Positions 3,387 to 36,746 of a stretch of DNA of 41,845 bases are shown here, in pieces. The position numbers were made by a program, and so were the translations under genes. The notes below the pieces were generated by a model. It had not been told where the DNA came from. It saw only the letters and a list, made by a program, of their open reading frames with translations, and ran no database searches. The stretch is from the IMG/VR virus record IMGVR_UViG_3300039314_000292, one strand, 5' to 3'. This stretch comes from a virus (taxonomy: Duplodnaviria; Heunggongvirae; Uroviricota; Caudoviricetes). Position 1 is the stretch's first letter. Each line of letters starts with the position of its first letter.

Positions 3387-6300
3387 TTAACGTTCTTCCA
3401 GAGACTGAATCCGCTCTTTTATCTTATCCATTTCTCTGCGCTGCCATGCTGCCTCGATATAGAATAAGAGATCAGGTCTGACCCCCCATCTAGATCCTGC
3501 TGGCGTTATTTCAACGCGCTCAATGATGTCTTCCATTACCATCACTGGATTATCATCCTCATCAACAATAATGCTCCCGTCATTATCAGTCAGCGGCATT
3601 TCCCTTTGGCCAGTAATGACGTCATCATATACTGCGGGATAATCGTCATAGCAAAGAAACGCATAGCGGCATGTTGTGCTTTCTTCTTCCATGAGTCCGT
3701 GAGAAATAAGAACATCACGAAGTTGCTGCGCGATTACACCATGATGTATCCTCGCCCCTTCTTCCCCCTTTATAGCGACAGCGTTCAGCCATTTATAAGC
3801 GATATACCTGACGTCACCCCAGGCATCCAGCAATGCTTCGTCAGGAGAGACCGGCTCTGTCTTTAATGTTCCGTCACTGGTAACCACAGGATTGGAGCCA
3901 AGATAAACTGTCGAGAACCTGTTTCCCGGACCACCAAGAGCATTTACATTATCAAGATAAGGTTTAACATCTCCGTTCTCAAAAAGATGTTCGAGTGCGT
4001 TATATACCGCGCGACGTGGAGTACTGCTTCCGGAACCATGCAACGTTATCATTGCACCATCTGCTGAAGACGTTGTTTCACCGCCGCTAACGATTAATCT
4101 CTGAGCGGTAACATCATCAGACGGTACTTTCTTCGCAATAATGGCGTAATTACCCTCAAGTTTGACTTCCGCGCGAACTTGTCCTGATGTACCTGCATGG
4201 ACAGTCAGTGACTGGACGGCAACATCATCTGTGAAATCAACGGGTACAGGAACCGTCCTCACGCCTGACGTCGACATAAAAGTAGGAAGCGTTCTGTTAG
4301 GAGTGGCTCCGTAGACAAAATCCCTTGAAACAAATTCTTCCTGTTTAATTTTCACCCTGAAACAATACAAATCAGCCGGGTGACCATCGTGAACATAAGG
4401 ATATTTTCTGTTGTTATCCCCTATGCTCCATGGGTTTAGAAAGTCTTCCCCACCGAAAATGTAGTACAGCCAGTTGTCTTTGATACAAACTGAACCAACA
4501 CCAACCGCAGAGTTAACTATTCCGCCCTGATAAATCTGATCAGTAACATTAACCCACTCTACATTATCCAGACTCCACTCATTGACGTTAACTCTGGTCA
4601 TAAATGTTCTTGGATAATTTCCTGCATAACGGTTATCAGGTTCTCCTCCTTCCCACTCACCAAATGCGCGCTCACTGCCAAAAATAATCAGCTCATCGCC
4701 AACTTTGGCAAAAGGAAGGTTTGAGTGATGAACATTATTTGGGAAGCGAAGAGAATTCCATGATGTACCTAAATCAGAGCTTCTGTGCAATGAACTACCG
4801 GGTTGAGTACTTAATGTCCCCCTGGTCGTCAGATACAGAATGCCATCATAATATTTTACACATGGCTCAGATGCATTCGCCTCATATTCTGCAGGTATGC
4901 GTCTGCGAACAAAGCTACCAGGAGAACCGAAAGCATCAGAGAAATAGAGTATCCCAAGCTCGCGTGGACCAATATCACCATTATGGTAGCCAACAGCAAA
5001 ACTGTTATCGCTAATCGTCGCAAAACTGTGAATCTCAGTAACAGGAGTGCTTCCGTCAACAAAAGAAGGAATAGTTCCAAGACTGGTTTTTCTCCATGGT
5101 GACGAGTGAAATGATGTACCAAAACTCCAGTATCTACCCTCGTTATTCTGATCCACATCCTGGGTATTTTGCGTCGTAACTGTAAAAGTATTTTTATCAA
5201 TAACAGTAGTCACCGTCATATTCCCGGTAACACCTGTAACACCAGAGTTTGAGAAGTTGACAAAATCACCAGCAAATAATCCGTGATCAGTAATGCGAAT
5301 ATAAGCGACTTGCTGATTTGCTGCTTTCGTTATACCACCATAAACGCGAAGGCTGCGACTCATTGGGCGATCCCACAACTCTGCAACCTGCAGTTTATTT
5401 CCGCTCACGGTCCGCGTCTCAATTACAGCAAAAAGGCGATTTCTGACAACCCCCATACTCATGCAGTGATAGTTAACTGTGGGATAGTTTTCATGTAAAT
5501 CTGTAAGCCATTCCGGCGTTGTCCAGGTCTTCCCGTCATCTCCTGAGCGAACCCATGCAACATGGAGGTTATTTACACCATGGCGGTCTCCAGCCATAAA
5601 AGGCGCATAGATGACATTGTCATATACAAACGTTTTATCCTGCGTCCAGGCGTTGTACCACGGTGTATCTGTAATTTTAAATAACTCTCCCTGGATAAAA
5701 TCTTCAGAAGCATAAAAAAGAGGCTGGCCCGGTATTCTCTCAAATAAAAAACGAGCATTTTTAAATCGACTGACATCCGGAAGAGTTGATACTTTAAAAG
5801 TAAGCCCTAATCCGTCAATTCTATAACCTGGAGATGAGGCTTCAAGGCACGCGCTTATTGCAGTGGAATCGTCATTTATACCATCACCAACAGCTCCAAA
5901 ATCTTTGGGGCTAATAGCATCACGCATTTTATCCTGGAACGTTCGGTACACAGCCCCAGAACCATACTGAATAAACCAACCAAAACCACCAACAACCCCG
6001 GCGATTGCAGCATCGACATAATTACGCATTGAGCGATTATTTACAGCGTCCTGCTCAAATGATGGATCTGCAAGGTTAGAAATTTTGTTTTGCTTTGCAT
6101 CGTAATATTTTGCAAGCAAAGATGGTTTCATCAATGCACGTCTGAACCACCCAAAACATTGCTGGATCAGCATCGTCAGGTAGTCAAAGGCATCTTCATG
6201 CACTTCGGGGAAAAATTTTCCCTGATTGCGAAGGTCTGTCTCCTGCACTACATCAAGCACACGATCTATCGTAATTCGCCATCCAGTAGCAAGCGGAGAC

Positions 6301-6506
6301 GGAAGAACCACAGAACCGCCACTATAAGTGCCCGCCCCAGTTACCGTATAACCGGTATCCAGAACCAATTCTGTTACGTTTCCGTTCAGGTCAGACACCT
6401 GAACAACCAGGTCTGATTTTCTGAAAATTCGAAAAGTATACGGAAACGATGTCGTAACGCCGTTACCGGTGTATTCGTTGTGGTCAACTTCGGTTGAGAC
6501 CGTCAT
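3387..6506 (-). CDS. tailspike / receptor-binding depolymerase with C-terminal intramolecular chaperone domain (1039 aa)
   Basis: N-terminal NEYTGNGVTTSFPYTF segment typical of podovirus spike N-termini; DFGAVGDGINDDSTAI beta-helix (pectate-lyase-3-like) signature; Asp-box motifs SGDDGKTW and SSDLGTSW; C-terminal about 160 aa with SDGTLKT motif resembling self-cleaving chaperone (peptidase S74-like) domains. Confidence 0.9.
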   Translation of the reverse strand: MTVSTEVDHNEYTGNGVTTSFPYTFRIFRKSDLVVQVSDLNGNVTELVLDTGYTVTGAGTYSGGSVVLPSPLATGWRITIDRVLDVVQETDLRNQGKFFPEVHEDAFDYLTMLIQQCFGWFRRALMKPSLLAKYYDAKQNKISNLADPSFEQDAVNNRSMRNYVDAAIAGVVGGFGWFIQYGSGAVYRTFQDKMRDAISPKDFGAVGDGINDDSTAISACLEASSPGYRIDGLGLTFKVSTLPDVSRFKNARFLFERIPGQPLFYASEDFIQGELFKITDTPWYNAWTQDKTFVYDNVIYAPFMAGDRHGVNNLHVAWVRSGDDGKTWTTPEWLTDLHENYPTVNYHCMSMGVVRNRLFAVIETRTVSGNKLQVAELWDRPMSRSLRVYGGITKAANQQVAYIRITDHGLFAGDFVNFSNSGVTGVTGNMTVTTVIDKNTFTVTTQNTQDVDQNNEGRYWSFGTSFHSSPWRKTSLGTIPSFVDGSTPVTEIHSFATISDNSFAVGYHNGDIGPRELGILYFSDAFGSPGSFVRRRIPAEYEANASEPCVKYYDGILYLTTRGTLSTQPGSSLHRSSDLGTSWNSLRFPNNVHHSNLPFAKVGDELIIFGSERAFGEWEGGEPDNRYAGNYPRTFMTRVNVNEWSLDNVEWVNVTDQIYQGGIVNSAVGVGSVCIKDNWLYYIFGGEDFLNPWSIGDNNRKYPYVHDGHPADLYCFRVKIKQEEFVSRDFVYGATPNRTLPTFMSTSGVRTVPVPVDFTDDVAVQSLTVHAGTSGQVRAEVKLEGNYAIIAKKVPSDDVTAQRLIVSGGETTSSADGAMITLHGSGSSTPRRAVYNALEHLFENGDVKPYLDNVNALGGPGNRFSTVYLGSNPVVTSDGTLKTEPVSPDEALLDAWGDVRYIAYKWLNAVAIKGEEGARIHHGVIAQQLRDVLISHGLMEEESTTCRYAFLCYDDYPAVYDDVITGQREMPLTDNDGSIIVDEDDNPVMVMEDIIERVEITPAGSRWGVRPDLLFYIEAAWQRREMDKIKERIQSLEER

Positions 6507-6610
6507 GTTAAATCTCCAGATAGTCGCAGCACCCGTTGCGCCGCATATCTGGTTATTCTATTACCTGGAAAACCACATATGGATAGAAAGGCTGTAAATA
6601 CGAATAGATA

Positions 6611-6625
6611 TTACCTTTCAGGTGA
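6611..6625. promoter_or_regulatory. operator-like site TTACC-N5-GGTGA (near-perfect copy of the repeated palindrome)
   Basis: TTACCTTTCAGGTGA about 40 bp upstream of the LexA box; 4/5 match in second half-site. Confidence 0.45.
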
Positions 6626-6662
6626 TTTGCAAAACGTGCTGGATAGCAAACAAATTATTTGC

Positions 6663-6682
6663 TACTGTATAAATATACAGTT
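6663..6682. promoter_or_regulatory. LexA (SOS) box
   Basis: TACTGTATAAATATACAGTT: CTGT-N8-ACAG with AT-rich spacer, matches E. coli LexA consensus TACTGT(AT)4ACAGTA; 21 bp upstream of ATG 6702. Confidence 0.7.
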
Positions 6683-6701
6683 ATTGCATGGAGAAGATAA
6701 G

Positions 6702-6959
6702 ATGCAGCAGTATCACTATCCACTGGAAGACGGATTTACCGAAAGGATTCACACGCCGGGAGGCGTCAGGTCACTGGTGGAGGGATCGCACTTGATGAAA
6801 TTACTCCGGGATCTCGATAAGGATGGATTTAATGTCGATGGCCCACTTGCCGAACTGACTGCACTGATTAACTACGTCACCAGCTCACAGATGTCTATGC
6901 GGGATCTGCAAACACATCTCGACTATTGTGCCGAACAATTACGAAAACAAACCAGATAA
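6702..6959 (+). CDS. small SOS-controlled protein (85 aa), paralog of the antirepressor C-terminal domain; candidate antirepressor
   Basis: ATG 6702 with GGAGAA RBS, favoured over upstream ATG 6579; product aligns to C-terminus of 7275..7985 (LMKLL/LMNLL, DGFNVDG/DGHDVSG, AELT, RDLQTH/RDIQTH). Confidence 0.55.
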   Translation: MQQYHYPLEDGFTERIHTPGGVRSLVEGSHLMKLLRDLDKDGFNVDGPLAELTALINYVTSSQMSMRDLQTHLDYCAEQLRKQTR

Positions 6960-6988
6960 GATTTGAAATTACCAATAGGAGTGCTTAT

Positions 6989-7007
6989 ATTTACCTTTGC
7001 GGTAAAT
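6989..7007. promoter_or_regulatory. operator-like 19-bp perfect palindrome ATTTACC-N5-GGTAAAT
   Basis: ATTTACCTTTGCGGTAAAT; perfect 7-bp inverted half-sites; between small SOS gene and antirepressor gene. Confidence 0.6.
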
Positions 7008-7096
7008 TTACATCGCACTCCTCTTGTGCCATAGTAATCGGGCACTGGCAAAATCCAGTGCCGGGATTGGCGTCCCGGGTTACTAAGTGGCGCATA

Positions 7097-7118
7097 CCAC
7101 GCCAGACGTGGTTTTTTT
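7097..7118 (+). terminator. putative intrinsic terminator preceded by two strong hairpins
   Basis: CCACG-CCAGA-CGTGG followed by TTTTTTT; upstream hairpins GGCACTGG-CAAAAT-CCAGTGCC (7041..7062) and CCGGGA-TTGGCG-TCCCGG. Confidence 0.5.
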
Positions 7119-7274
7119 ATGCGTTAAGCACAGCTATATCCGAATTATGGTGGGCTGGGCAGGGGTCCGAAAGGACGCCGGTACCACTTAGGCCGGTACG
7201 CCAACCTTGTCCAGTTCACCACCAGTAATTGGCGTTGCGGTGGTGATTAAAATCACTAAGTGGAGATAACCACC

Positions 7275-7985
7275 ATGGCTAATGCTCAAACTGCCATCTT
7301 CAAATTTGAATCTGTTAACCCTATCCGTTCCATCATTATCGATGGCCGACCATGGTTTGTAGCCCAAGACGTTTGTAGTGCGCTGCGTATCCAAAACGTC
7401 ACCCAAGCACTTGAAAAACTGGATGATGATGAAAGGTCTATGTTCAACATAGGGCATGAACATCGTGCAATTTTTGACAGCCGAGTAAAAGAGATCAACA
7501 TTATCTCCGAGTCAGGCCTCTACACACTGATCCTCCGCTGCCGCGACGCAGTGACACCAGGCACTATCCCCTACCGCTTTCGTAAATGGGTTACAGGTGA
7601 GGTTCTTCCTCAGATCCGCCGCACCGGAAGTTACATTAAAAACTCGCTCCCGCAGGAAGAACGCATAAAGATGGTTGCCGACCAGGTAGCCAACGCCACG
7701 GCGTCAGCAGTAATGCAGGCGATGAAGATAGAGAACAAAACCTACAGTGCCCCGCTGAAGCCCGGCTACCGCAGTCTGATTCATTCCCCATCTGGTGTTC
7801 TCGGCCTGACGGAGCACTCACTGCTGATGAATCTGCTGAACCAGTTACAGGAAGACGGGCACGACGTATCGGGCGCGGCGGCGGAGCTGACCACCATGTT
7901 CTGCTACATCGTCGGTGTAAGCAAATGCCTGCGTGATATCCAGACGCACGCGGAGTACATCAACGACAAGGCTGGGTTCTTCTGA
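7275..7985 (+). CDS. Bro-N domain antirepressor-like protein (236 aa)
   Basis: ATG 7275 with GGAG RBS; N-terminal Bro-N signature (FKFESVNPIRSIIIDGRPWFVAQDVCSALRIQN...); C-terminal domain paralogous to 6702..6959. Confidence 0.8.
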   Translation: MANAQTAIFKFESVNPIRSIIIDGRPWFVAQDVCSALRIQNVTQALEKLDDDERSMFNIGHEHRAIFDSRVKEINIISESGLYTLILRCRDAVTPGTIPYRFRKWVTGEVLPQIRRTGSYIKNSLPQEERIKMVADQVANATASAVMQAMKIENKTYSAPLKPGYRSLIHSPSGVLGLTEHSLLMNLLNQLQEDGHDVSGAAAELTTMFCYIVGVSKCLRDIQTHAEYINDKAGFF

Positions 7986-8051
7986 CGGGCGGCGGCACAG
8001 GGATGTGCTTCTGACATAATCATTTGCGGTGTGATGTAGATTCACGTAAGA

Positions 8052-8066
8052 TTACCTTAAAGGTAA
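8052..8066. promoter_or_regulatory. operator-like perfect site TTACC-N5-GGTAA
   Basis: ATTACCTTAAAGGTAAACC immediately upstream of the 8093 operon start region. Confidence 0.55.
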
Positions 8067-8092
8067 ACCATGGGTTTACATGAGGAGGAGAT

Positions 8093-8302
8093 ATGGGATT
8101 TTGGTTCGCTCGTACAAAAACGAGGGATAATGCACCCAGCCCTCAGGCAAAAAATGCAGAAGTTCCGGCGTCAGCGCAGGTTAACAAGCGTGGTGGAGTA
8201 TATATCTCATCACAGCAAATTTCTGAGCTTCCTGAGGTTAAGGAGATGCGTCGTCTCGCTGCTGCAATTGTTAAACAGGATCTTGCCACTGTAAGGAAAT
8301 AG
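8093..8302 (+). CDS. small hydrophilic protein (69 aa), first gene of accessory operon
   Basis: ATG 8093 preceded by GAGGAGGAG; stop overlaps the GTG start of the next gene; chosen over overlapping alternate-frame ORF 8070..8294. Confidence 0.45.
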   Translation: MGFWFARTKTRDNAPSPQAKNAEVPASAQVNKRGGVYISSQQISELPEVKEMRRLAAAIVKQDLATVRK

Positions 8303-9168
8303 TGTTGTTAGCTCTTCTAATTATCCCCATTCTGGTTAGTGGTTATATTATGATAACCGCTAACCAGTATCATTATTTCCGTTTATACCGACATGAAGGC
8401 CAGCTTCTTTATATGAAAGTAGCTGCATTAGGTACATATTGCCTTGTTGCATCAGTAATAATTGCAGCCGCTATAAAATATAAATGGCCTGATTTTCACC
8501 TAGTTCACGATATGGTGGAAACTTTTAATGTAACATCAAAACCAGAAACAGATAGAATTTACATGTGGCTGCTTCTTCTCTCAGCCACATCCATTTGCTT
8601 CTCTTTGTGTTATGTGTCTGTTGTGTGGGTGAAAGATTTTCTTCTTGGTTGTTTTTATAAACGTGATATTTACGAGCAAAAAACAGAGGCAATGAAGGCC
8701 AGAGTACTGCGAAAAACTTACTCGCAAGGTTCTTTAGACTTACTATTGCTTGATGCTATTGAATCGGATCCTAAACGACCAATGTTGATTACTTTATCAT
8801 CAAACAAAGTGTATGTTGGAATAATAAATGGTTCTGGTGAACCAACGGAAAATCAGGGTCCGCATCAGCACATATCTTTTGTTCCTTTAATGTCAGGATA
8901 CAGGAACAAAGAAAACTTATCTGTCACATTCACTAATGCTTATCCAGGAGAAATACAGGTCAAGCGGACTGCAGCAATAAGAGGAATTAGCAGAAAGAAA
9001 GTGCCAGGACTTGAGATCATGGTGTCTATTGACGAAATAAGTTATATATCATGGTTTGATTTTGAAGTATATAAAGCAACAAATAACAAAGTAGAATCCA
9101 GGGGGCACGTTATTCGTGTTACCAAAAATGGAAGAAATATATATCAAAGAAATAGCAAAAAAGAATAG
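8302..9168 (+). CDS. low-GC inner-membrane protein (288 aa): 3 N-terminal TM helices plus about 170-aa soluble domain; candidate superinfection-exclusion/defence protein
   Basis: GTG 8302 with AAGGA RBS; markedly AT-rich versus flanking phage genes; TM segments LLALLIIPILVSGYIMI, VAALGTYCLVASVIIAAAI, IYMWLLLLSATSICFSLCYVSVVWV; terminator follows. Confidence 0.7.
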   Translation: MLLALLIIPILVSGYIMITANQYHYFRLYRHEGQLLYMKVAALGTYCLVASVIIAAAIKYKWPDFHLVHDMVETFNVTSKPETDRIYMWLLLLSATSICFSLCYVSVVWVKDFLLGCFYKRDIYEQKTEAMKARVLRKTYSQGSLDLLLLDAIESDPKRPMLITLSSNKVYVGIINGSGEPTENQGPHQHISFVPLMSGYRNKENLSVTFTNAYPGEIQVKRTAAIRGISRKKVPGLEIMVSIDEISYISWFDFEVYKATNNKVESRGHVIRVTKNGRNIYQRNSKKE

Positions 9169-9458: not shown

Positions 9459-10019
9459 CTACATTGATATATGATTCATAAAGTAGCTTAAAGATTTACT
9501 TCCCAGAAAAGAAATTTCTTTTCCTGGATATGTCGCAATAATTGAGCATGACTTATCCCCGTTAGAGGTAACAAATCCTGAATAACCTACTTGTTCTTTA
9601 CCATTTTGTTGCTTGGCTAAAAAGTAGAGGTAGCTTATCTTTTTGCCCTCTGGGTAAAACTCTGCCAAACCAGTATCGGTGATTGAATATTTTATTCTCC
9701 CGCCTTGAGTAACGTTTTCCATCTCAAGTTTAGCTATGTCTTTTCTGTTGTATTCAGCATTGATTTTCCTTTCGAAATCAATGTTGTTTTCAAATGAGTA
9801 GGAAGCAACAGTCTGAATAGATGGGAACACGTTTATCTGGATGCCTCCACAGTCGGCACAGGTATAAAGGTATGAATCAGATGGAATCCCCATAAAAGAA
9901 AACTGAGTTACCTTAAATTTATCGCTATCTCCAAAGTATTGAAGTTCGCATTTAACATTTTGCCCTGCAAAAGAAAATGCAGACATCAATATTGAAACAA
10001 AAAATATAATTGCCTTCAT
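9459..10019 (-). CDS. low-GC secreted protein (186 aa), moron appended to virion-protein operon
   Basis: Signal peptide MKAIIFFVSILMSAFSFAG; AT-rich; starts 2 nt after stop of the 850-aa virion protein gene; own terminator. Confidence 0.7.
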   Translation of the reverse strand: MKAIIFFVSILMSAFSFAGQNVKCELQYFGDSDKFKVTQFSFMGIPSDSYLYTCADCGGIQINVFPSIQTVASYSFENNIDFERKINAEYNRKDIAKLEMENVTQGGRIKYSITDTGLAEFYPEGKKISYLYFLAKQQNGKEQVGYSGFVTSNGDKSCSIIATYPGKEISFLGSKSLSYFMNHISM

Positions 10020-26504: not shown

Positions 26505-26581
26505 GTGGCATTAGCTCAGTTGGACAGAGCAACCGCCTTCTAAGCGGTTGGTCGCAGGTTCGAATACTGCATGCCACGCCA
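26505..26581 (+). tRNA. tRNA-Arg (anticodon UCU), phage-encoded
   Basis: Cloverleaf readable by eye: 7-bp acceptor GTGGCAT/ATGCCAC, D-stem GCTC/GAGC, anticodon stem ACCGC/GCGGT with loop CTTCTAA, T-loop TTCGAAT, 3' GCCA; one T-stem mismatch (G53-A61). Resembles argU (memory). Confidence 0.85.
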
Positions 26582-26785: not shown

Positions 26786-26803
26786 TTACCTTAAAGGTAT
26801 AAT
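26786..26803 (+). promoter_or_regulatory. operator-like site overlapping a TATAAT -10 element of the moron promoter
   Basis: TTACCTTAAAGGTAT (26786..26800) with TATAAT at 26798..26803. Confidence 0.5.
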
Positions 26804-36161: not shown

Positions 36162-36746
36162 ATGAAAAGTATCCAGGACGTCCGCAGGCAAAATCTCAAC
36201 GACTTGATCGACCGTGAATTCAATGGTGTTCAGACGCGGATGGCAGAAAAACTTGGAACTCAGGCAAATCTGGTAAACCGCTGGGCTCTTGGCAAGAAGG
36301 TTATCGGCGATCAGGTTGCACGAAAAATTGAAGCTGCCGCCAATAAACCCCGTAACTGGCTTGATATTGATCGCTCGCTTTCTCAGGAGGGTTTTCAGCC
36401 TGTCGGCCCGAGTGATATAGGTCAGCTGGCGGCTCACAACCTGGAACGCTGGATGAGCGAAAGCCGCGACCTTTCAACGCAGGGAAAACTACACCGCGCA
36501 TCCGGCGTCGCCCAGGTGACAATCAGCCGCCTGTTAAACAATGAGGTCAGCGTTTCCATTTCCACCCTGGAGAATGTTGCATCCGCATTCGGGCGTCACG
36601 GCTATGAATTACTGATTCACCCGCACGACCCTGCAACCATCAACTATGATCGCTCGCGCTACGCATTGTTACCCGAAACCGAGAAAGCAAAGATCGAAAG
36701 TTACATTGAATTTGTCATCAACCAGAACGAAAAAAACAAACAATAA
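36162..36746 (+). CDS. CI-like repressor with two HTH (XRE-type) domains, no S24 autopeptidase domain (194 aa)
   Basis: HTH QTRMAEKLGTQANLVNRWALGKK and a second HTH-like segment; flanked by operator clusters; own terminator. Confidence 0.65.
   Translation: MKSIQDVRRQNLNDLIDREFNGVQTRMAEKLGTQANLVNRWALGKKVIGDQVARKIEAAANKPRNWLDIDRSLSQEGFQPVGPSDIGQLAAHNLERWMSESRDLSTQGKLHRASGVAQVTISRLLNNEVSVSISTLENVASAFGRHGYELLIHPHDPATINYDRSRYALLPETEKAKIESYIEFVINQNEKNKQ

Follow-up and report, generated by a model that had tools for sequence, protein, structure and literature searches.

What occupies the gap between an SOS-controlled gene and a Bro-N antirepressor gene in this prophage, and how might it bear on the choice between lysogeny and lytic growth? 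The window (the whole stretch of DNA analysed, 41,845 nucleotides) is a prophage of the ε15/phiV10-like (Uetakevirus) type that encodes an endosialidase tail fibre. A preliminary description had marked positions 6960-7120 as a highly structured non-coding segment that could be a small RNA or an attenuator of Bro-N expression. We conclude that this segment is almost certainly the promoter, operator and leader RNA (IsrK, alias a1b1) of a P1-type C4 antisense-RNA switch. As a blend of element identity and mechanism, this is very probably the best explanation overall.

The names that the flanking genes had received hold, the first through a perfect LexA box and the second through a match to Pfam PF02498:

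6665-6680, plus strand: LexA box CTGTATAAATATACAG, an exact CTGT-N8-ACAG, before the 85-aa gene
6702-6959, plus strand: SOS-controlled ORF of 85 aa, paralogous to the Bro-N antirepressor's C-terminal domain
7275-7985, plus strand: Bro-N antirepressor gene (PF02498, E 3.4e-19; PHROG anti-repressor families)

CTGT-N8-ACAG occurs three times in the window against 0.49 expected, and the copy at 6665-6680 has an AT-rich centre. The 85-aa protein is 43% identical to the antirepressor C-terminal domain over 74 aa (BLASTP, E 4e-16), and it and the Bro-N protein both match phrog_450. Pfam returned nothing significant for the SOS protein, and PADLOC gave no match for this protein, the Bro-N protein or the ORFs at 8093-8302, 8302-9168 and 9459-10019. 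Overexpression of a relative's antirepressor promotes lytic growth (PMC9782041).

Structure and identity of the segment

The segment contains the following local features:

6963-6991, plus strand: distal promoter-like site, TTGAAA-17-TATATT (10/12 positions in a consensus scan)
6977-6984 and 7015-7022: AGGAGTGC and GCACTCCT, an inverted repeat bracketing the operator
6989-7007, no strand assigned: operator of the prophage repressor, ATTTACC-TTTGC-GGTAAAT
7007-7035, plus strand: predicted proximal promoter, TTTACA-17-CATAGT with a TG extension at 7027-7028 (consensus scan)
7041-7048 and 7055-7062, plus strand: hairpin 1, arms GGCACTGG and CCAGTGCC
7061-7066 and 7073-7078, plus strand: hairpin 2, arms CCGGGA and TCCCGG
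7096-7101 and 7107-7112, plus strand: intrinsic terminator, arms ACCACG and CGTGGT, with seven T at 7112-7118 (also recovered by the consensus scan)

The palindrome, both hairpins and the terminator thus lie in 6960-7120 where the preliminary description had put them. Its 8-bp-stem hairpin, its CCGGGA/TCCCGG hairpin and its hairpin with seven T are in the sequence, with the refinement that hairpins 1 and 2 share two C (C7061-C7062), which leaves stems of 7 bp and 5 bp if both form, as in the Rfam isrK consensus. The "perfect 19-bp palindrome" needs correction: its span is 19 bp and its 7-bp arms are perfect, but the 5-bp centre is asymmetric (6996/7000 and 6997/6999 are mismatched). That the segment is highly structured is borne out by its stability relative to shuffled sequence and by its Rfam isrK match (E 1.7e-12 for the whole 41.8-kb window). 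RNA folding had been proposed as a check; positions 7000-7125 fold at -48.4 kcal/mol versus -35.8 +/- 3.6 kcal/mol for shuffles (z -3.55), more stably than all 200 of them, and the palindrome region at 6968-7030 has a folding z of -5.28. The absence of a convincing ORF likewise holds, as the region is crossed only by a TTG-started 100-aa frame (6926-7228) and fragments of 34-42 aa. A coding reading of 6926-7228 and of 7087-7191 was considered and rejected: the frames start at TTG or GTG, they cross conserved RNA structure, and the equivalent frame differs among relatives.

The palindrome can be assigned to a specific regulator. The window has 14 copies of TTACC-N5-GGTAA where 0.67 would be expected, and pairs of these sites lie on either side of a 194-aa helix-turn-helix gene (36162-36746) whose product is 100% identical to the repressors of phiV10 and vB_EcoP_ZX5. 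Comparison of five related Uetakevirus loci shows no change in the half-sites but different spacers. Because of the 14 sites, their placement around the repressor gene and the invariant half-sites, we take the palindrome to be the operator of the prophage repressor. The earlier reading of an operator palindrome is therefore right as to the operator, which overlaps the promoter region, and wrong in so far as the element does not lie within the RNA expected from the proximal promoter. Pfam matched no self-cleaving peptidase domain in the 194-aa repressor, which fits induction via antirepressors. Overexpression of the ZX5 repressor shuts down the lytic genes (PMC9782041).

Two promoter-like sites surround this operator. 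The -10 hexamer and start region of the distal site extend into it, and the position of this site is kept in five Uetakevirus loci despite sequence drift. The proximal promoter has a presumed start at about 7042 and is the positional counterpart of the P1 promoter P1c4 (P51b); its -35 hexamer abuts the operator, so the effect of the repressor on it is uncertain. Its -10 region, TTGTGCCATAGTAATCGG, is invariant in six Uetakevirus loci; other module types and P1 likewise have a -10 hexamer some 7 nt ahead of hairpin 1. By the consensus scan the region holds fewer promoter-like sites than its shuffles do. From the sequence we infer the function of both sites and the sign of the repressor's action.

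At gathering thresholds, Rfam finds isrK, C4 and one tRNA only in the whole window, and at E<=1 no further family besides isrK, C4 and c4-a1b1 is matched in 6000-9000. The RNA elements and the sites within and beyond them are these:

7029-7081, plus strand: full-length match to c4-a1b1 (Rfam RF03163; 44.1 bits against a gathering score of 46.7; E 3.4e-9)
7042-7118, plus strand: IsrK-type leader/small RNA (Rfam isrK RF01394; 67.7 bits against a gathering score of 50)
7042-7061, 7062-7077 and 7096-7112 with its T run to 7118, plus strand: hairpin 1, hairpin 2 and terminator of the leader
7067-7073, plus strand: a1, UUGGCGU, in the loop of hairpin 2
7083-7090, plus strand: b1, CUAAGUGG, between hairpin 2 and the terminator
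7143-7226, plus strand: C4 antisense RNA (Rfam RF01695; 66 bits against a gathering score of 45; model positions 1-87 of 87), with a long outer stem, two inner hairpins and a CCA-like 3' tail after the outer stem
7184-7191, plus strand: b', CCACUUAG, in the loop of the second C4 hairpin
7198-7204, plus strand: a', ACGCCAA, single-stranded in C4
7229-7235, plus strand: a2, UUGGCGU, the exact complement of a'
7256-7263, plus strand: b2, CUAAGUGG, overlapping the Shine-Dalgarno GGAG (7262-7265) of the antirepressor gene

The isrK match spans model positions 1-77 of 77, and a single-sequence fold gives all three hairpins of this family. The c4-a1b1 score lies 2.6 bits below its gathering score, where relatives range from 39 to 51 bits. 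Both models describe the same two hairpins and isrK adds the terminator; the element is filed under isrK, with c4-a1b1 as a second description of the same hairpins. A discrete small transcript at the locus is predicted from this family membership. C4 starts 24 nt past the terminator, beyond the interval that the preliminary description had delimited, and its minimum-free-energy fold is the family consensus structure (z -5.0). In proposing the structured segment as a candidate regulator, that description had missed the actual regulator, C4, together with a2 and b2 over the Shine-Dalgarno sequence, and it had overlooked the role of the hairpin region in presenting a1 and b1 as target sites.

Antisense pairings and covariation

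The C4 loop CCACUUAG is complementary over 8 nt to CUAAGUGG both at b1 (7083) and at b2 (7256), and the C4 stretch ACGCCAA is complementary over 7 nt to UUGGCGU both at a1 (7067) and at a2 (7229). The word CTAAGTGG occurs in the 41.8-kb window only at 7083, at 7256 and, as its complement, at 7184. At the downstream target, b2 shares GG with the Shine-Dalgarno sequence, and the Bro-N start codon (ATG, 7275) follows 12 nt on. The AUG at 7147 in the 5' stem of C4 is followed by 14 codons only; the stop falls within the b' loop, 84 nt short of the antirepressor start. No ORF (icd-like leader gene) was found between C4 and that start. Nested cofolding of C4 with its targets was set aside as uninformative: it gave a ddG of about -1 kcal/mol, and loop-loop (pseudoknotted) pairing cannot be represented in it. 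In cis, the fold in which b1 and b' are paired lies only 4.3 kcal/mol above the minimum-free-energy fold, which makes alternative conformers like those of Gifsy-1 plausible.

The arrangement recurs in related phages. In 12 of 12 related phage loci, among them phiV10, HEMP4, a Klebsiella phage, a Salmonella phage, Stx phages, Nil2, APSE-2 and 2H10, isrK is followed by a gap of about 18-25 nt, C4 and, wherever the record is annotated, an antirepressor gene. Another 80 loci came from scanning IMG/VR with a pattern for the conserved C4 stem, and the combined set comprises 105 unique modules with 56 (b', a') specificity types. Exact complementarity was compared between each C4 and the targets of its own locus or of other loci, with these means:

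b'/b2: own locus 8.0 nt, other loci about 4.4 nt
b'/b1: own locus 6.9 nt, other loci about 4.4 nt
a'/a2: own locus 7.1 nt, other loci about 4.4 nt
a'/a1: own locus 6.9 nt, other loci about 4.4 nt

For a'/a2, none of the 56 specificity types has an own-locus match shorter than 7 nt. No other computational evidence speaks as strongly for functional pairings as this covariation between separate elements, and that holds for the pairings of the window too (8, 8, 7 and 7 nt). That 56 types exist among 105 modules shows that the module diversifies like an immunity determinant.

Within the leader, hairpin 1 shows covariation at 5 of 7 pairs (53 sequences), and 90% of cells are paired, a share that falls to 30-51% once the partners are slid. 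Between b1 and C4, 104 of the 105 modules carry five or more T in a row. RNAalifold on a MAFFT alignment of the 53 leaders recovered hairpins 1 and 2 in part only. The terminator stems are out of register in this alignment; hairpins 1 and 2 were accordingly counted against the stated structure, and the terminator was scored per sequence by its T run rather than from the alignment. Covariation among relatives, which the preliminary description had put forward as a check, is thus found both inside the leader and between the elements, with own-locus matches of 7-8 nt against about 4.4 nt across loci.

A proposed switch and its alternatives

From the computed results, that is, family membership, the folds, all four complementarities and the covariation across loci, we build the following scheme; promoter use, C4 processing, the direction of the leader's effect and control by the repressor are the steps that we infer. 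Two tandem promoter-like sites would flank the repressor operator, and the proximal one would start an RNA at about 7042. The first 77 nt of this RNA would form two hairpins and an intrinsic terminator (IsrK/a1b1). Transcripts that stop at the terminator would be short IsrK-like RNAs, and those that read through would continue into C4 (7143-7226, presumably excised as in P1) and then into the antirepressor mRNA. Through b' and a', C4 would pair with b2 and a2, covering the Shine-Dalgarno sequence, and the antirepressor would remain untranslated and the lysogen stable. The a1 and b1 sites on the short RNA would compete for C4, in other words act as an anti-antisense decoy, and an excess of leader RNA would titrate C4 and permit synthesis of the antirepressor. 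We regard this full mechanism, a P1-type C4 switch with a decoy leader, as reasonably probable. The earlier suggestion of a terminator/attenuator or small RNA before the Bro-N gene survives in part: the sense orientation and the intrinsic terminator upstream of the Bro-N gene stand, and the family to which the element belongs acts in Gifsy-1 both as a small RNA and as a read-through leader.

An alternative is that the leader is mainly a C4-dependent transcription attenuator, in which C4 bound to the nascent a1 and b1 promotes termination at 7096-7118, after the manner of the P4 CI RNA with seqA/seqC or the N15 CA RNA. On this view few transcripts in the lysogen would extend as far as the antirepressor gene, with the short RNA as a by-product. 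The geometry suits such a role, with b1 ending 5 nt before the terminator stem, and the intrinsic terminator is nearly universal at this place (104/105 modules). The small energy difference of the b1:b' cis fold (4.3 kcal/mol) is also in its favour, and the possibility is raised in the Gifsy-1 study itself, whose authors regard IsrK as structurally homologous to P4 SeqA (PMC4825925). However, co-expression of the Gifsy-1 C4-like region increased IsrK toxicity instead of relieving it (PMC4825925), and a search by eye for a conserved anti-terminator helix between b1 and the terminator, of a kind that C4 binding could disrupt, yielded weak options of 4-5 bp only. The best-conserved pairing, moreover, is that of a2/b2 over the Shine-Dalgarno sequence (mean 8.0 nt), which points to translational control. 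We therefore consider attenuation as the main function unlikely; the decoy and attenuator mechanisms are not mutually exclusive and may coexist.

A simpler possibility is that the segment merely forms the 3' untranslated end of the SOS gene, terminator included, with hairpins that have no regulatory role of their own. A consensus scan found no terminator-like site between 6959 and 7096, and in one prophage without the isrK-C4-ant cassette, the SOS gene has a hairpin terminator of its own directly after the stop codon. For these two reasons the terminator at 7096-7118 probably also ends SOS-gene transcripts. Against the segment being nothing else, isrK with a promoter-like -10 hexamer about 7 nt upstream is found in many phages that have no upstream SOS gene (P1, Stx phages, APSE-2 and EC.W1-9 among them), and the loop sequences covary with the downstream C4, which makes this explanation very improbable.

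The analogy with the sar RNA of P22 immI, a small RNA antisense to the ant leader, can be practically discounted: the likeness is the general theme of a small RNA beside an antirepressor gene that limits antirepressor synthesis, but sar is a true overlapping antisense transcript without sequence or structural relation or Rfam match to this element, all predicted structures and the terminator here are on the sense strand, and the isrK and C4 matches, with no other Rfam family at E<=1 in 6000-9000, explain the whole region. The family that the preliminary description had in mind was thus the wrong one; Rfam gives isrK and C4, and the regulator is a downstream antisense RNA of the same strand, acting in trans or in cis.

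The preferred reading, a C4 switch with a decoy leader, leaves room for an input from DNA damage. Because the 85-aa gene has no terminator of its own, SOS transcripts should run into the a1/b1 leader. We tentatively propose that transcripts of the LexA-controlled gene enter the leader and end at the IsrK terminator, so that DNA damage could yield a small protein antirepressor together with a burst of decoy RNA at the 3' end of the SOS-gene mRNA, which would titrate C4 and unlock the Bro-N antirepressor; of the parts of our proposal this is a doubtful one. If true, the wiring would constitute a two-stage induction circuit that has not been described for P1 or Gifsy-1.

In long SOS transcripts, positions 7026-7039 can pair with the b1 region, and such RNAs might be poorer decoys.

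Distribution and relation to known systems

A query over the SOS gene and the region has matches in 533 of 5426 complete E. coli genomes (~10%), and the module is also found across Stx phages, APSE and P1-like elements. The RNA module is unannotated in the RefSeq record of a 99.5% identical E. coli prophage, the phiV10 record marks only a terminator in the gap, and a text search of one functional paper on this phage group found no occurrence of "sRNA" or "LexA" (PMC9782041). Rfam, the P1 record, the Gifsy-1 study and Weinberg et al. 2010 (PMC2864571) already cover these RNA families as well as their targets and logic. Only the wiring of the SOS gene may be new; otherwise the element is of a known kind and lacks annotation in the ε15/phiV10-like group. 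The main gain lies in annotation: the stretch from the SOS gene to the Bro-N gene, left blank so far, accommodates two curated RNA genes together with four antisense target sites. An RNA switch, in addition to LexA, probably gates the induction of these ε15-like prophages, which are specific for the K1 capsule.

Related systems include the CI RNA of P4 (with seqA, seqB and seqC) and the CA RNA of N15, which are processed C4-type small RNAs from the leader of their own operon. They pair with repeated complementary sites upstream and downstream of themselves and act by premature transcription termination, and in P4 the target is the replication genes, not an antirepressor.

The IsrK-orf45 (STnc1160)-anrP region of Gifsy-1 in Salmonella is another. 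Its leader belongs to the same Rfam family, the short RNA and the leader are the same sequence, and downstream lie a C4-like stable RNA complementary to the leader and then the antirepressor gene (PMC4825925). There, IsrK exists as a separate small RNA and, on read-through, also forms the leader of the antirepressor mRNA; the short form binds the complementary stretch of the read-through RNA and raises antirepressor translation more than 100-fold, as compensatory mutants confirm (PMC4825925). Activation in Gifsy-1 depends on translating a 45-codon ORF coupled to anrP, whereas the 14-codon ORF found here cannot couple. This short, uncoupled ORF makes direct occlusion of the Shine-Dalgarno sequence, as in P1, more likely, and the details of Gifsy-1 transfer incompletely. 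A second difference lies upstream, where this locus has no AntQ gene and does have a LexA-controlled gene and a repressor operator.

A close counterpart is immI of P1 and P7, for which we used the annotated P1 GenBank record. Its order of elements is Oc4 (Op51), P2c4 (P51a), P1c4 (P51b), a1, b1, c4 RNA, a2, b2, icd and ant, and Rfam scores this P1 stretch at 68.8 bits for C4, 51.0 bits for c4-a1b1 and 35.1 bits for isrK. In P1 the c4 RNA is processed by RNase P, and Rho-dependent polarity operates. The two loci have the same order of elements on one strand, with nearly identical spacing: an operator of the main repressor lies at tandem promoters, a1 is in the loop of the second leader hairpin with b1 just after it, a1 and C4 are about 80-88 nt apart, C4 has the same fold and a2 follows it directly, and b2 covers the first two bases of the Shine-Dalgarno sequence, with the start codon 11 nt on in P1 and 12 nt on here. 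In both, operators of the repressor are dispersed over the genome, 14 here and 22 for P1 C1.

The differences from P1 are equally specific. The occluded Shine-Dalgarno sequence here is the antirepressor gene's own, there being no counterpart of icd, the leader gene that must be translated for ant expression in P1, and the antirepressor is a Bro-N protein. The terminator after b1 is strong here (isrK 67.7 bits), whereas P1 has a weak hairpin and T run (35.1 bits). The operator lies between the promoter-like sites here and upstream of both in P1, and here a LexA-controlled gene feeds the leader. The locus works like immI and is not the same operon.

An SOS-controlled gene and a separable cassette

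6665-6959: 85-aa ORF (the SOS gene) with a perfect LexA box

This ORF encodes a stand-alone protein paralogous to the C-terminal domain of the Bro-N antirepressor (43% identity, E 4e-16). Both proteins hit phrog_450, whose function is unknown. The 85-aa protein is probably the primary SOS-controlled antirepressor.

In some related prophages the isrK-C4-ant cassette (isrK leader, C4 antisense RNA and Bro-N gene) is absent after the SOS gene (for example, L135 1560-1990, from E. coli A3176); instead, the SOS gene has a GC-rich hairpin terminator of its own directly behind it, with a convergent gene next. Because such cassette-free prophages retain the SOS gene with its own terminator, the cassette is a separable module. 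When the SOS gene and isrK/C4 region were used together as a query, several of the listed complete-genome matches covered only the SOS-gene half. Another locus (L047 9700-11270, IMG/VR UViG 2671181028_000005) carries three tandem cassettes at a spacing of 656 bp. Each combines an isrK leader with a C4 RNA and a small gene (~110 aa) resembling an antirepressor, and the a/b specificity differs among all three.

Possible cargo genes and the tail-fibre gene

8052-8066: operator copy preceding the next two ORFs
8093-8302: ORF of unknown function, phrog_5739
8302-9168: ORF of unknown function, phrog_3630
3387-6506, minus strand: tail fibre, a 1039-aa endosialidase

Neither of the two ORFs behind the operator copy had a match in Pfam or PADLOC; both may belong to that same insertable cassette as cargo under the repressor's control. 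The tail fibre ends in a C-terminal S74 chaperone domain and, since it is an endosialidase, this ε15-like prophage should target the K1 (polysialic acid) capsule.

Alternative structures around the leader and C4

The operator upstream of the leader is bracketed by an 8-bp inverted repeat, AGGAGTGC/GCACTCCT (6977-7022). The entire counterpart region in phiV10 (L001 1968-2030) is a perfect 41-bp palindrome, with a predicted RNA fold of -32.5 kcal/mol (z -8.3). Beyond repressor binding, the region might serve for RNA processing in transcripts arriving from the SOS gene.

The stretch 7026-7039, -10 hexamer included, shows complementarity to the region of target site b1 (7078-7093). It lies directly 5' of the presumed start. 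b1 would be buried in a three-way junction only in transcripts from upstream promoters. Further downstream, within 7215-7250, GGUGGUG (7241-7247) is complementary to CACCACC (7217-7223) in the outer stem of C4 (3' strand), forming an alternative hairpin with target site a2 inside its loop. This hairpin may switch between unprocessed precursor and mature C4. The GGTGGTGA box is kept in most relatives examined, and P1 carries an altered pair of sequences at this position.

The operator network and phage P1

TTACC-N5-GGTAA operator copies: 6611, 6991, 8052, 9643, 26168, 26786, 29719, 29737, 33743, 33805, 36044, 36092, 36804, 36866

These 14 copies (0.67 expected in the window) are scattered over several intergenic regions, and a pair flanks the repressor gene (36162-36746) on each side. 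Two helix-turn-helix regions are present in the repressor, for which Pfam gave no peptidase-domain match. A tRNA-Arg gene (anticodon tct, 26505-26581) lies inside the prophage, adjoining the copy at 26786. The operator set resembles that of P1 in being a dispersed network for one repressor.
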